A DNA stretch of 50,950 bases from Candidatus Iainarchaeum sp. (GTDB taxonomy: Archaea > Micrarchaeota > Micrarchaeia > Anstonellales > Bilamarchaeaceae), in contig JAQTSF010000001.1 of assembly GCA_028711485.1 (NCBI GenBank), forward strand, positions 1-50,950. Direction: 5' to 3'. A program made the position numbers and the translations under genes. Below the pieces are notes generated by a model. That model had not been told where the DNA came from. It did not search any database and worked only from the letters and a program-made list of their open reading frames with translations. Below, piece after piece: positions 9,074 through 23,160 of the stretch (the stretch's first letter is position 1; each line of letters starts with the position of its first letter).

Positions 9074-9238
9074 GATTTATGAGGTTTTCACATGCGTGAT
9101 CCGTTTTAAACGTTGGTACGTTTAAAATATCCCGCATTAAGGTATTAAAGAGGTTTTCACATGCGTGATAATTCGAACTGACAATACAAGTTCAAATATC
9201 CCGCATTAAAGTATTTATGAGGTGTTCACATGCGTGAT
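9074..9238 (+). repeat. Triplicated SD + ATG-CGT-GAT module (43-nt block, period 69 nt) with two divergent 26-nt hairpin-forming inserts and two mini-ORFs
   Basis: Blocks at 9127-9169 and 9196-9238 differ at 4 positions; a partial copy is at 9074-9100. Mini-ORFs are MRDPF* (9092-9109) and MRDNSN* (9161-9181). Hairpin 9104-9127 has a 10-bp perfect stem. Confidence 0.8.
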
Positions 9239-10837: not shown

Positions 10838-11617
10838 ATGGAAACTCATGCTGCTGTGCTTTCAGGATTTGGTTTAAATTCAGAATATGAAACTGCTTAT
10901 GCAATAAAACTTTCAGGGGGAAATGTAGATATTATTCATTTAAATCAATTTATAGACGCACCATCTCTTCTACATACTTATAATTTTTTAGTTCTTCCAG
11001 GAGGATTTTCGTATTCTGATCATTTAGGTGCCGCAAAGGTTTTTTCCAATAAACTCTTTTTTAAGCTTAAAAAAGAACTTTCTGAATTTATAAGTGAAAA
11101 AAAACTTATTCTAGGAATTTGTAATGGTTTTCAAATGCTTGTAAAACTAGGTCTTTTACCCTATTCTGATTTTAAACAAAAAGTAACTCTTAGTTACAAT
11201 GATTCTGGAAAATTTGAGGATAGGTGGGTAAGATTAAAAGCAAATAAAAATTCTCCATGCATCTATACTAAAGATATTGATTTTTTCGATTTGCCTGTTC
11301 GTCACGGAGAAGGTAAATTAATAATCCCCAATCAGGAAATATTGTTTGATATTTTAAATCACAATCTTTTCCCATTACAATATGTGGATTCAGAAGGAAA
11401 ACTTTCAGGGTATCCATTCAATCCGAACGGTTCCATAAATAATATTGCTGGGTTGTGCGATCCTACCGGAAGAATTTTTGGATTGATGCCCCATCCTGAA
11501 TGTTATAATACATTTGCAAACCATCCATTATGGACTTCTCTTTCCTCTAAAGAAATAAGAGAAGGACATGGATTAAAGATTTTTAAAAATGCAGTAAATT
11601 ATCTTAAAACCCAATAA
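10838..11617 (+). CDS. purQ: Phosphoribosylformylglycinamidine synthase, glutamine amidotransferase subunit
   Basis: LVLPGGFSYSD, GICNGFQMLVKLGLLP (Cys nucleophile), GLMPHPE. Confidence 0.85.
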   Translation: METHAAVLSGFGLNSEYETAYAIKLSGGNVDIIHLNQFIDAPSLLHTYNFLVLPGGFSYSDHLGAAKVFSNKLFFKLKKELSEFISEKKLILGICNGFQMLVKLGLLPYSDFKQKVTLSYNDSGKFEDRWVRLKANKNSPCIYTKDIDFFDLPVRHGEGKLIIPNQEILFDILNHNLFPLQYVDSEGKLSGYPFNPNGSINNIAGLCDPTGRIFGLMPHPECYNTFANHPLWTSLSSKEIREGHGLKIFKNAVNYLKTQ

Positions 11618-11707
11618 TTTTAACTTATCAAAAATAGACAACACAGACAAACAACGAAATCTATTTAAATGATTGTCTTAATAGTATTTTAGTCAATTGG
11701 TGCACAT

Positions 11708-11779
11708 ATGAATAAGATAAAATTGGAAATCAGTGTGAACTGTTGTTCACAACTCTCTAACTTTAAGGTGAGATCATGA
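11708..11779 (+). promoter_or_regulatory. 23-codon upstream ORF (MNKIKLEISVNCCSQLSNFKVRS) with an internal palindrome; its stop overlaps the main start (ATGA)
   Basis: GGTG lies 5 nt upstream of ATG 11708. The first 8 codons encode the same peptide as the downstream gene using 5 synonymous third-position changes. TGTGAAC-tgtt-GTTCACA is at 11734-11751, and TGA 11777-11779 overlaps ATG 11776-11778. Confidence 0.5.
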
Positions 11780-12459
11780 ATAAAATTAAGTTAGAGATCG
11801 CTGGAGAAATTTCACTTTCAACTGACCCCGGATCTACAATGAGAAAATGGAGAGAAATATTTGGTATAAGTCAGGTTGAACTTGCCAATTACTTAAATAT
11901 AACTGTTTCAACTATAAGTGATTATGAAGGTAATAGGAGAAAATCTCCTGGTTCGGCAATAATAAGAAGATTTGTGAATTCATTATTTGATATTGATCTA
12001 AAGAAAGGCGGTTTGATTTCAAGAAAATTAACTGAGAATGAGAAAACCACAAACGATTTTTTTGAGGTCCACGAATTTGCCAGAAGTATTAAATTATCTG
12101 ATTTTATTTCTCTAATAGATGGTAAAATCCATACAAATAAAGAATTAATAGATTCCAAAAAAATCTATGGTTATACTCTTATAGATAGTATAAAAACTAT
12201 TTTAGAAATGCCTTTTTCCTATTTTACTTCTCTTTATGGAAATATAAGTGAAAGGGTATTCCTATTCACAGGAGTTTCAACAGGTAGAAGTCCTTTAGTT
12301 GTAGTTAGGGTAAGTCCAAACAAACCTTCAGCGGTAGTTCTTCATGGAGTTGAAAAAATAGATAAACTTGCGCTTAAAATTTCAGAAAGAGAACAGATTC
12401 CGATAATTTCAACAAAAATGTCTATAAATGAAATAAAAGAAAAATTAAATAGTATATAG
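11776..12459 (+). CDS. XRE-family HTH transcriptional regulator with uncharacterised C-terminal domain
   Basis: MRKWREIFGISQVELANYLNITVSTISDYEGNRR is a Cro/C1-type HTH. The C-terminal 150 aa are unassigned. Confidence 0.65.
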   Translation: MNKIKLEIAGEISLSTDPGSTMRKWREIFGISQVELANYLNITVSTISDYEGNRRKSPGSAIIRRFVNSLFDIDLKKGGLISRKLTENEKTTNDFFEVHEFARSIKLSDFISLIDGKIHTNKELIDSKKIYGYTLIDSIKTILEMPFSYFTSLYGNISERVFLFTGVSTGRSPLVVVRVSPNKPSAVVLHGVEKIDKLALKISEREQIPIISTKMSINEIKEKLNSI

Positions 12460-22813: not shown

Positions 22814-22977
22814 TTTCTTCTTCTTTCAGATTTATTTTTTTATACCTTTTAATTTATTTTATATCAGACGCTGTTGACCTCATCACCAACCTTTTGACTC
22901 ATTACATACACACGGCAAAACGTTGACGAAAAACCATGCGATATATCTTTGTCAGGTTATCAGAGGTTGTTCATGTC

Positions 22978-23160
22978 ATCACAATGAGCGACCCAAGAGG
23001 AACAATCAACAACTTAAGCCTTTACTCGTTAGTGAATTGTGATTTTTGAACGTTAGTTCAAAAGTATCACAATGAGCGACCAAGGATTGACAAGCATTCC
23101 AGAGTCTTTACTCATAAGCGAATTGTGAACTGTAAGAATCAGTTCACCTAATCACAAGAT
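22978..23160 (+). repeat. Two ~88-nt units (box1 - variable 24-26 nt - box2 - variable hairpin) plus a degenerate third box1
   Basis: Box1 ATCACAATGAGCGACC is at 22978-22993 and 23066-23081. Box2 CTTTACTCNTNAGNGAATTGTGA is at 23020-23042 and 23106-23128. Hairpins are at 23044-23063 (8 bp) and 23125-23147 (8 bp). ATCACAAgat occurs at 23151. Confidence 0.8.

Follow-up and report, generated by a model that had tools for sequence, protein, structure and literature searches.

Introduction

In synthetic bicistronic designs (BCD), a short first cistron with an SD of its own carries the second SD near its 3' end, its stop overlaps the second start, and structure is removed by the ribosome. Programmed bypassing is exemplified by T4 gene 60 and by the mitochondrial 'byp' elements, and in archaea oligo-T is the main intrinsic termination signal. 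To our knowledge, little has been documented on cis-acting translational control in archaea, next to nothing is known of it in DPANN, and we know of no way in which these lineages can yet be grown alone. BCD expression cassettes have been described (PMC5995908, PMC8601185). In Haloferax volcanii, overlaps of -4 or -1 nt result in strict termination-reinitiation coupling, which is abolished by a spacing of about 20 nt (PMC6728339, PMC10666635), and in the established coupling model the upstream ribosome unfolds a masked downstream RBS (PMC12548453).

The leader described here lies in a contig of an uncultivated DPANN archaeon (Micrarchaeota), Candidatus Iainarchaeum sp., and the whole stretch that was analysed (50,950 nucleotides) is referred to as the window. 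The literature, which was covered in part, held no account of such leaders in DPANN or other archaea, and this is not proof of absence.

Results

Architecture of the leader

All features of the leader lie on the forward (+) strand. A probable archaeal promoter with the BRE/TATA-like motif CGAAA-TC-TATTTAAA is found at 11655..11669, and the motif recurs before the orthologous gene at many loci, where it takes the form cgaaatctatttaaac... When the usual archaeal TATA-to-TSS distance is applied to it, the transcript probably starts near 11691-11694, about 15 nt 5' of an upstream ORF (uORF). SD1 (GGTG, 11699..11702) stands 5 nt before ATG1 of this uORF (11708..11779, with ATG at 11708 and TGA at 11777-11779), which comprises 23 codons plus TGA and encodes MNKIKLEISVNCCSQLSNFKVRS. 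The first eight uORF codons (A1, 11708..11731, MNKIKLEI) are an upstream copy of the first eight codons of the real gene start (A2, 11776..11799). The inner hairpin P2 (11734..11751, a 7-bp stem TGTGAAC/GTTCACA with the loop TGTT, predicted to be paired) is followed by the anti-start segment antiA (TCTCTAACTT, 11754..11763), the reverse complement of nt 13-22 of the main gene, and by SD2 (AGGTGA, 11766..11771), 4 nt before ATG2, so that the order from 5' to 3' is start-copy, hairpin, anti-start, SD, real start. The uORF frame runs across P2, antiA and SD2, and ends in a 4-nt overlap with the main start, ATGA (11776..11779); the two ORFs are co-directional and joined as in a termination-reinitiation pair.

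The gene that the leader would regulate (11776..12459) encodes an XRE-type HTH protein of 227 aa with a match to Pfam HTH_3 (E = 2.6e-6). For the function of this protein, NCBIfam gave weak matches below the cut-offs, PDB gave weak, generic HTH matches, and no characterised close relative was found. The protein itself is highly conserved in Micrarchaeota, with 849 homologues, many of them at 58-88% identity. In Rfam, the whole window had no match at the gathering score, and 11600-11850 at E <= 1 had one match, a chance snoRNA hit of 19.8 bits against a threshold of 70.

The first-pass annotation had pointed out the start echo, the GGTG, the palindrome, the AGGTGA and the ATGA overlap, all of which hold on re-check. 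As it had stated, A1 and A2 share 19/24 nt, and their five differences (nt 9, 12, 15, 18 and 21) are all at third positions and all synonymous. A 19/24 echo by itself would be just mildly unusual. The roughly 0.7 Mb of Micrarchaeota DNA that was scanned holds about 12,000 candidate starts, of which 15, most of them of the HTH gene, had an upstream echo of at least 19/24, versus 5 in a downstream control. The feature is judged real because independent assemblies show this architecture again at the orthologous gene.

Distribution among Micrarchaeota

About 26 distinct Micrarchaeota contigs show the leader layout 5' of the HTH orthologue. Many other orthologues do not carry the element and look leaderless: their promoter motif stands 21-28 nt ahead of the ATG, a distance that implies an mRNA with no leader. 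L164 (88%) and L002 (86%), the closest relatives by protein, belong to this leaderless-looking type. The first-pass annotation had asked whether the uORF is conserved at orthologous loci: it persists in relatives, but the leader element is dispensable.

L126 and L125/L128 share the promoter and differ by 77 nt, so that the element behaves as a clean indel. Leaders have from 1 to 3 or more units, those of L163 being perfect 68-nt tandem repeats, and in some assemblies contigs break inside the leader. In the multi-unit leaders of L039 and of the thiolase gene in the window, one unit matches the next exactly in its start and anti-start segments, and the inner hairpins have diverged. L013 and L046 retain an A1 remnant that is able to pair with antiA and has no uORF start. 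A CRISPR-like repeat-spacer reading of the multi-unit leaders was rejected, since the 'spacers' are conserved hairpins.

Conservation of the upstream start copy

Between the window and L161, A1 shows 0/24 differences while its flanks show 20/62 (32%), which has P ~1e-4 under neutrality of A1, and L161 keeps the GGTG at the same spacing although 11/18 surrounding nt differ; GGTG or GGAG precedes A1 in most other instances. Within genomes A1 is near-identical to A2 in most cases, even where species differ in amino acids, and the distance between the two copies is 0.06 within a genome versus 0.23 between genomes (0.04 versus 0.28 for the unpaired codons 2-4). Over 21 instances, the differences between A1 and A2 at the first, second and third codon positions number 0/1/26, and every one of those in the window (5), L161 (3) and L162 (5) is synonymous. 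A1 also tracks the lineage-specific replacements of the main protein at codons 2 (N/E/D/Q), 3 (K/R), 4 (I/V) and 6 (M/L/A/I).

The start codon of A1 is retained in 21/22 instances (L086 has CTG there), with ATG, TTG and GTG interchanging. In L017 the uORF is frameshifted after codon 3. Among the aligned uORFs no conserved peptide motif was found beyond the eight copied residues, the frames differing after the hairpin, and the uORF peptide after codon 8 shows 5 non-synonymous versus 3 synonymous differences between the window and L161.

Stop positions and ATGA junctions

In 20/22 aligned instances the distance from the uORF stop to the main start lies between -9 and +13 nt, and canonical stop/start overlaps of -4 or -1 occur in 6 of the 22 leaders. 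The two exceptions are L098, whose uORF stops 34 nt early, and L126, whose uORF passes the main start by 37 nt. In L161 and L162, the closest relatives of the window, the start copies are strung into chains of uORFs, with ATGA overlaps as the links: L161 has three starts with two ATGA junctions, and L162 has an ATGA junction after a 59-codon uORF, so that in the window subclade 4/4 junctions are ATGA. The frame would have stayed open by chance with a probability of 0.023 in L162 and 0.19 in unit 0 of L161. Across the 22 instances, openness of the uORF frame was not significant relative to frame 2 (21/22 open in frame 0, 19/22 in frame 2), both values being high because the anti-segment is pyrimidine-rich; openness tells something about translation only for the long uORFs, those of L161 and L162. 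The earlier suggestion that the layout suits termination-reinitiation or structure-gated coupling agrees with the ATGA overlap, the internal SD and the retention of the uORF in relatives.

Pairing and covariation of the anti-start stem

The segment antiA (11754-11763) pairs at 10/10 positions with 11788-11797 (AAGTTAGAGA, codons 5-8 of the HTH gene, P unpaired 0.03), of which it is the exact reverse complement. This segment had been overlooked in the first-pass annotation. The resulting 10-bp stem (-22..-13 with +13..+22, about -10 kcal/mol) is present in the MFE structure with a predicted pairing probability of 0.95, against 0.00 for antiA:A1, and P2 has a predicted P unpaired of 0.01 in the window. 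SD2 and AUG2 sit within the 24-nt loop of the stem (predicted P unpaired of SD2, 0.68). How strongly the antiA:A2 stem represses is uncertain, as SD2 and AUG2 lie in the loop and not in the stem.

Over 22 aligned leaders, 97.7% of the antiA:A2 cells are paired and 5/10 pairs have changed on both sides, whereas slid controls reach at most 59% and 0/500 shuffles reach the observed value. The stem follows both the synonymous and the amino-acid changes of the gene (AAGTTAGAGA/TCTCTAACTT, CTTGAGA/TCTCAAG, AAAATGGAGA/TCTCCATTTT and AAAGCGGAGA/TCTCCGCTTT). For P2, 92% of cells are paired, with compensatory changes at 6/7 pairs. Both stems stay paired over a divergence of about 25% in the start and 36% in the spacer, the GGTG of SD2 is almost invariant across the alignment, and by the compensatory changes in P2 and antiA:A2 the leader is a conserved structured RNA. 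A covariance model recovered further instances in L161, L163, L043 (twice), L013 and L162. Taken whole, the HTH leader has a folding energy no better than its shuffled versions (z = -0.31), and the thiolase leader has z = -1.51; as evidence this energy is uninformative, and the case for structure rests on covariation.

The A1 of the window pairs with antiA at just 8/10 positions, with two A.C mismatches, and complementarity has been lost in L161 too, where each anti-segment matches the next start copy downstream and not the upstream one. The first-pass annotation had noted the palindrome and suggested hairpin-gated translation; the candidate gate is not the palindrome but the stem between antiA and codons 5-8, which covaries with the synonymous changes of the gene across species.

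Start echoes at other genes

A start echo with a uORF stop overlapping the main ATG was also found at unrelated genes, namely a thiolase gene (L072) and a PIN-like gene (L016). Two further places in the window had been assigned to the same theme. The assignment stands for 9074-9238, the leader of the window thiolase, which has start copies and anti-start segments with uORFs of 5-6 codons, while 22961-23160 is only loosely related. These thiolase-leader uORFs are too short to reach the anti-segment, so coupling is not the whole story for the wider theme. An unanchored scan for direct repeats with an inverted copy between them returned HTH leaders only at strict settings and 19 matches at loose settings, against 19 in the reverse-non-complement control; it was too noisy and was replaced by scans anchored at gene starts.

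We suggest tentatively, and with some doubt, that the start-echo leader is a modular, tandemly expandable, general cis-regulator in Micrarchaeota, in which start copies and anti-start units gate several unrelated genes (the HTH regulator, the thiolase and the PIN-like gene). A ribosome might enter at the 5'-most copy and be passed on via ATGA junctions, or the pairing register might open the real start, and the number of units (1 to 3 or more), evolving fast via slippage or recombination, might tune or gate expression. If true, archaea would have a further, new class of translational control, one in which concerted evolution of gene and leader is built in.

Discussion

In the reading that we prefer, the tandem-duplicated initiation region may act as a coupled uORF, such that translation of the regulator depends on translation of the uORF; reading this from sequence, we hold it to be an evenly balanced proposition. 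A tandem duplication covering the initiation region of the gene itself (SD, start codon and first 8 codons) would have given rise to the leader, and the stem between antiA and codons 5-8 would hamper direct ribosome loading at the real start, while SD1 and A1 would stay single-stranded and recruit ribosomes. A ribosome on the 23-codon uORF would then unwind P2 and the closing stem and terminate at the UGA within the AUGA, after which the main start could be used via reinitiation or via fresh SD2-dependent initiation on the opened RNA. The output of the regulator would thereby be tied to initiation at the 5'-proximal copy, and extra units, as in L161, would make a relay.

A different use of the same parts would be a register-shift switch, in which A1 serves as a decoy that competes with A2 for the single antiA and uORF translation is secondary: a long antiA:A1 hairpin enclosing P2 would leave the real start open, antiA would close it when A1 is occupied or removed, and the balance would be set by unit number and by ribosome or 5'-end status. 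The MFE structure pairs antiA with A1 in 13/22 leaders, with the conformers differing by less than about 5 kcal/mol in most, and a switch of this kind would fit the near-identity of A1 and A2 within genomes, unpaired codons 2-4 included (0.04 versus 0.28), the A1 remnants of L013 and L046 that pair with antiA and lack a uORF start, and the L039 and window thiolase units that share start and anti-start segments while their inner hairpins diverged. The same titration logic is seen in erm(C), where a 63-bp tandem duplication with an extra SD2/IR4 makes expression constitutive (PMC3429524). The A1:antiA pairing reaches 95%, and 4 of its pairs have changed on both sides, but P1 and P1' are not independent tests, A1 being nearly the sequence of A2. 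In the window and L161, moreover, A1 is no longer complementary to antiA (8/10 and a probability of 0.00 in the window) and yet is perfectly conserved, and we know of no signal able to flip the switch; we think this alternative rather unlikely. A1 is identical to A2 in most other instances, and there the close conformer energies fit the decoy as well as coupling. The repeats could also have no regulatory role and be left over, neutral or mildly harmful, from tandem duplication or slippage where a gene start is rich in hairpins; unequal recombination or gene conversion would keep the copies alike, and gain and loss would have been repeated. This would account for the patchy distribution and the clean 77-nt indel (L126 versus L125/L128), the variable unit number with the perfect 68-nt units of L163, the contig breaks within the leader and the element-free orthologues that do well, and gene conversion would also confine the differences between A1 and A2 to third positions (0/1/26). 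It is nevertheless improbable in our view, given that compensatory changes keep P2 and the anti-start stem over about 25% start and 36% spacer divergence and that long uORFs stay open up to the ATGA. Selection on the stem itself follows from L161 and the window, where A2 and antiA have together diverged from A1; and A1, though no longer homogenised with A2 in that lineage, has 0/24 changes where its flanks have 32%.

Transcription attenuation of the pyrBI type, in which the A1-P2-antiA hairpin and the T-run of antiA (CCATTTTT) would be terminator-like and a ribosome that follows RNA polymerase closely on the uORF would prevent termination, is quite improbable. The uORF covers the hairpin, many instances have T4-T6 directly behind its 3' strand or inside that strand (TTTTTT in L009 and L086, TTTTT in L008), and the T-run exceeds the length needed for complementarity to A; against this, the window and L001 have just TTT at the site, the A1:antiA hairpin is not predicted in the window, and it is the Lys-Met codons AAAATGG that largely account for the T-run. 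The synonymous divergence of the two copies had been taken as a sign of selection on the N-terminal peptide or on its translation, and a function of the uORF peptide or the shared octapeptide, as a nascent-chain signal or small protein, would fit the 26 third-position differences versus 1 other over 21 instances, the synonymous differences of the window, L161 and L162 (5, 3 and 5) and the interchange of ATG, TTG and GTG. Such a function is very unlikely. A1 is conserved as nucleotides and A2 changes only synonymously because it encodes a conserved protein, so the pattern needs no peptide selection and is expected if A2 alone changes under protein constraint while A1 is static. A1 follows the replacements of the main protein, which points to copying or an RNA-level constraint and not to an independent peptide function, and the frameshift in L017, the CTG in L086 and the variable residues after codon 8 speak against it as well. 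Least credible of all is that the palindrome TGTGAAC-N4-GTTCACA is a DNA operator for autorepression by the HTH protein, with the repeats incidental. It is a perfect 7+7 palindrome directly before the HTH gene, and TGAAC..GTTCA occurs 3 times in the window versus 0.56 expected, but the other two copies are hairpins with different loop lengths at the 23 kb small-ORF locus. The stem drifts by compensatory changes (TTGAAC/GTTCAA, GGGC/GCCC, CCGGCC/GGCCGG) despite at least 70% protein identity, and no such palindrome is found near the promoters of leader-free orthologues; as an operator or regulon site it was rejected on these grounds.

Whether it acts by coupled translation of the uORF or otherwise, the leader offers a concrete case, defined in sequence and supported by phylogeny, for transfer to reporter systems such as Haloferax, Methanococcus or E. 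coli. In it, gene and leader are seen co-evolving at synonymous sites, so that codons 5-8 are constrained by RNA pairing as well as by the protein. For annotation, gene callers may mis-annotate such uORFs (that of L162 is called as a 59-aa gene), and the tandem units appear to break metagenome assemblies.

Comparison with known systems

Termination-reinitiation coupling as known from H. volcanii and E. coli (PMC6728339, PMC10666635, PMC12548453) shares with this locus the co-directional ORFs with a 4-nt ATGA overlap, the downstream SD within the upstream ORF and a stem of the initiation region in the path of the upstream ribosome. Here, by contrast, the upstream ORF is not a gene but a 23-codon leader copied from the downstream start, units can be chained (L161), and the stem joins the leader to codons 5-8 with SD and AUG in the loop, the coupling being the part that we infer.

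Translational bypass was rejected. A hairpin and SD-like insert between identical codons is seen here as in bypassing, and relative to L125/L128 the insert lies just after codon 8. In bypassing, however, one codon is repeated and a stop comes right after the take-off codon, whereas here the whole start region is repeated and the uORF continues for 15 codons past codon 8. No hop is needed, the downstream copy being equipped with an SD and an ATG of its own.

Like the leader-peptide attenuators of the ermC, cat and cmlA type, the locus has a short leader ORF with its own SD, and alternative pairings involve the initiation region of the regulated gene. It differs from the ermC/cat attenuators in having three segments (A1, antiA and A2) and not four, with the sequestering segment between the copies, in having no known inducer or stalling motif, and in its archaeal host; with only three segments, and with SD2/AUG2 in the loop (P unpaired about 0.7), it does not qualify as sequestration of the ermC/cat type. 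The erm(C) SD2/IR4 duplication mutants (PMC3429524), in which a second copy of the initiation region titrates the sequestering segment, follow the logic of A1, antiA and A2, but the duplicate described here is conserved and co-evolving and is not a laboratory or clinical escape mutation. With BCD cassettes the locus shares a short, SD-led first cistron that holds SD2 and whose stop overlaps the next start; it differs in being natural, in a first cistron that begins as a copy of the second, and in a dedicated, conserved stem that closes the second start. The leader is thus a natural counterpart to both the synthetic bicistronic designs and the erm(C) duplication mutants.

Anatomy of the leader of the HTH regulator gene

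The window is a contig from an uncultivated DPANN archaeon. The product of the gene at 11776-12459 is an XRE-type HTH protein of 227 aa whose conservation across the phylum is unusually high (58-88% identity). It is 100% identical to a MAG-derived database protein labelled Candidatus ainarchaeum sp., and all of its relatives were found in Micrarchaeota, Micrarchaeia or Bilamarchaeaceae MAGs, and homologue searches returned no characterised close relative. Archaeal housekeeping genes adjoin it (purF, thiolase with a DUF35-type OB-fold protein, purQ, a split GMP synthase and CTP synthase).

The leader described in the first-pass annotation was confirmed in its parts: a 23-codon uORF at 11708-11779, whose first 24 nt (A1, 11708-11731) have 19 nt in common with the start of the HTH gene (A2, 11776-11799); five differences, at nt 9, 12, 15, 18 and 21, each at a third position and synonymous; GGTG (SD1) 5 nt 5' of the uORF start (ATG1) and AGGTGA (SD2) 4 nt 5' of the main start (ATG2); a palindrome at 11734-11751; and an ATGA stop/start overlap. 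Among about 12,000 candidate starts, 15 had an upstream echo of at least 19/24 against 5 in the downstream control; taken by itself, a 19/24 echo exceeds chance only weakly.

The decisive element is an anti-start stem lying just outside the emphasis of that annotation. The segment TCTCTAACTT (antiA, 11754-11763), directly 3' of the palindrome and overlooked before, matches codons 5-8 of the real gene (AAGTTAGAGA, 11788-11797) as an exact reverse complement, and the 10-bp stem TCTCTAACTT:AAGTTAGAGA is present in the minimum-free-energy fold of the leader. In the partition function of the predicted transcript, with the transcription start inferred from the promoter motif, antiA has a pairing probability of 0.95 for the start of the real gene and of 0.00 for the upstream copy, and the palindrome forms its own hairpin (P2). 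The 24-nt loop holds SD2 and AUG2, and the isolated antiA:A2 stem-loop has a dG of -10.4 kcal/mol. The order of the leader is therefore SD1, A1, P2, antiA, SD2, A2.

A conserved motif, GCCGAAnnnnnnnTGACGnnnGTCGAAAT, followed by TATA was observed in most orthologues (about 40-70 nt 5' of the HTH start in loci L004-L034, from other Micrarchaeota); at 11628-11669 of the window, the version upstream of the TATA box is degenerate. This motif is a better candidate than the palindrome for a BRE or an autoregulatory operator.

Occurrence and origin of the element

The comparison covered 160 loci around relatives of the HTH protein, plus another eight around its nearest relatives. An upstream echo of at least 18/24 was found in 22 distinct leaders; its distance is stereotyped (64-91 nt, mostly 66-77), and the anti-segment lies at -21 to -27. 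The covariance model from these leaders detected further or degenerate copies in L161, L163, L043 (two units), L013, L162, L004 and L045, and no further copy in the window besides the HTH leader. The element is scattered within the clade of 65-88% protein identity and was not found in any locus with ≤62%. Orthologues without it (e.g., L048, L002, L164, L125/L128) carry the same promoter motif only 21-28 nt 5' of the ATG, which implies that their mRNAs are probably leaderless.

A tandem duplication of about 68 nt that took in the 5' UTR (P2, antiA, SD) together with the initial 24 nt of the coding sequence would produce exactly this layout. Perfect 68-nt tandem units in L163 (85% protein identity), three-unit leaders (L039, L090, L161 and the window thiolase) and clean indels, such as the 77-nt one after codon 8 between L126 and L125/L128, show apparent gain and loss of units by slippage or recombination. 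In L103, L108, L113, L163 and L043, the contig ends inside or immediately beside the leader; tandem units probably break short-read assemblies, so both copy number and prevalence of the element are likely under-counted. In L045:3767-3902 (and the equivalent L124 and L133), two small hairpins make up a 46-nt insert that interrupts the start copy, and an anti-start segment is lacking; the uORF still ends 1 nt 5' of the main ATG. This leader region seems to acquire small hairpins readily.

Covariation of the stems

In the 22-sequence leader alignment, 92% of cells were paired in P2, 97.7% in antiA:A2 and 95% in A1:antiA, with both-side changes in 6/7, 5/10 and 4/10 pairs, respectively. When the partners were shifted against each other by one to three columns, pairing fell to ≤59%, and the observed covariation was reached in 0/500 shuffles. 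The anti-segment follows the codon changes of the gene (TTAGAG/CTCTAA, CTTGAG/CTCAAG, ATGGAG/CTCCAT, GCGGAG/CTCCGC, ATCGAA/TTCGAT), indicating that the pairing is under selection and ruling out a fixed protein-binding motif. The leader is a real, conserved cis-element, with no match in Rfam and no description found in the searchable literature. The origin of the echo as a purely neutral duplication is unlikely given this covariation and the conservation of A1.

P2 drifts from TTGAAC/GTTCAA to GGGC/GCCC or CCGGCC/GGCCGG though the protein is highly conserved, which speaks against an operator role of the palindrome for the HTH protein. The palindrome was not found in orthologues without the leader.

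Relation of the two start copies

Inside a genome, 6% of positions differ between A1 and A2; between genomes, 23% differ in either copy and 36% in the spacer. For codons 2-4, which are unpaired with antiA, the contrast is even stronger (4% versus 28%). The nearest A2 to a given A1 was that of its own genome in 20/22 cases, amino-acid differences between species (N/E/D/Q, K/R, I/V, M/L/A/I) are mirrored in A1 as in A2, and A1/A2 differences by codon position 1/2/3 were 0/1/26. The pattern is one of concerted evolution: either the copies are homogenised, in which case the protein's constraint is passed on to A1, or selection keeps the entire initiation region the same in both copies.

The window is an outlier, with five A1/A2 differences. 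In L163 the copy ends ...AAA TTG GAA ATC with anti-segment TCCAATTTT, a state matching the A1 of the window; in the window and L161, A2 and antiA were altered together (AAG/AAA TTA GAG with CTCTAACTT) and the older sequence was kept in A1, which explains the divergence. The A1 of the window and the corresponding L161 copy are identical at 24/24 positions, against 11 differences in the 18 nt 5' of A1, nine in the 44-nt spacer and two in A2 (P ~1e-4 for zero A1 changes if A1 evolved like its flanks). The synonymous-only pattern arises because A2 is limited to synonymous change and the nucleotide sequence of A1 is held constant. It does not call for selection on the peptide, the central inference of the first-pass annotation. 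Such selection is also disfavoured by a uORF frameshifted after codon 3 (L017), by CTG where the A1 start codon is expected (L086), and by the lack of conservation of the uORF peptide beyond the start copy.

Evidence for use of the uORF

A1 keeps ATG, TTG or GTG in 21/22 leaders, usually with its own GGTG. The uORF stop lies -9 to +13 nt from the main start in 20/22 leaders (-4 or -1 overlaps in six), which is weak evidence across the whole set since the anti-segment is rich in pyrimidines and a second frame stays open in nearly as many leaders. Stop placement is informative in the subclade of the window. In L161, two ATGA overlaps join three start copies (uORFs of 34 and 23 codons), and each anti-segment matches the following start copy, not the preceding one; in L162, a 59-codon uORF (425-604) ends in ATGA on the main start. 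After spacer shuffling, these ORFs stayed open in 19% (L161) and 2.3% (L162) of trials. The gene caller of the source annotation called the L162 uORF protein-coding; leaders of this kind can thereby add spurious entries to tallies of 'hypothetical small proteins'.

Similar leaders at other genes

Start echoes also occur at genes other than the HTH regulator. The leader of the window thiolase (acetyl-CoA acetyltransferase; 9081-9238) consists of 69-nt tandem units, with three copies of SD+ATGCGTGAT spaced by 69 nt (GAGGTkTTCACATGCGTGAT: SD, start and two codons), the anti-start segment ATATCCCGCAT twice and two inner hairpins whose sequences are unrelated. Its uORFs have only 5-6 codons (MRDPF* and MRDNSN*), and in the MFE structure the real AUG is sequestered by the last anti-segment. 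Other Micrarchaeota thiolases have start echoes with an ATGA-overlapping 21-codon uORF (L072:5807-5872) or a uORF ending 5 nt 5' of the start (L077:5778-5828). At an unrelated PIN-like gene (L016:1667-1741), SD and ATG are echoed upstream, an anti-SD segment is present and the TGA of the uORF overlaps the ATG (TGATG), and L057:6116-6163 has an SD and start-codon echo with a uORF ending on or a few nt from the main ATG.

The first-pass annotation had seen the same theme at 9074-9238 and 22961-23160. This holds for the thiolase, with its start copies and anti-start segments, and only loosely for the second locus, where an 88-nt repeat contains two paralogous small ORFs (22978-23146) of 21 and 18 codons, each beginning with MSD. 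There AATTGTGAT, at the 3' end of ORF1, is the pairing partner of the unit 2 start ATCACAATG, with a TTTTGAAC-GTTA-GTTCAAAA hairpin between them (fold z-score -3.89, 0/200 shuffles). No third copy was found next to a gene start, and the locus may encode small proteins or an RNA.

Proposed mechanism and comparison with known systems

For the window leader, translational coupling is the best-supported reading of the sequence data. The closed stem-loop would hold the real start, ribosomes would load on the open 5'-proximal copy, translation through P2 and antiA would melt the stem, and after termination on the UGA within AUGA the main start would be used, either through reinitiation or through a new round of initiation that depends on SD2. 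The stem leaves SD2 and AUG2 in its loop, so the extent of the predicted repression is not fixed by the structure. The mechanistic direction of the first-pass annotation is partly right: the uORF architecture fits coupling, and the ATGA junctions recur in L161 and L162.

The chief alternative to coupling is a decoy switch, with A1 titrating antiA. This model suits the majority type, whose A1 and A2 are identical and whose two conformers are only a few kcal/mol apart, as well as L013 and L046, where an A1 remnant pairs with antiA without a uORF start, but it misfits the window, in which A1 has lost its pairing with antiA. Specific observations speak against each of four other readings: attenuation at the T-run, a functional peptide, a DNA operator and translational bypass.

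The leader would be a new form of leader-ORF and translational-coupling control, in a lineage without documented control of this kind. RNA unfolding and reinitiation are the established models of translational coupling, and the proposed coupling combines both (PMC12548453). For exactly the type of overlap present in the window leader, strict coupling was shown in an archaeon, where its efficiency collapses as the spacing grows to about 20 nt (PMC6728339, PMC10666635). The decoy logic of A1 and antiA, in turn, mirrors the erm(C) duplication mutants, a parallel that favours the decoy switch (PMC3429524).
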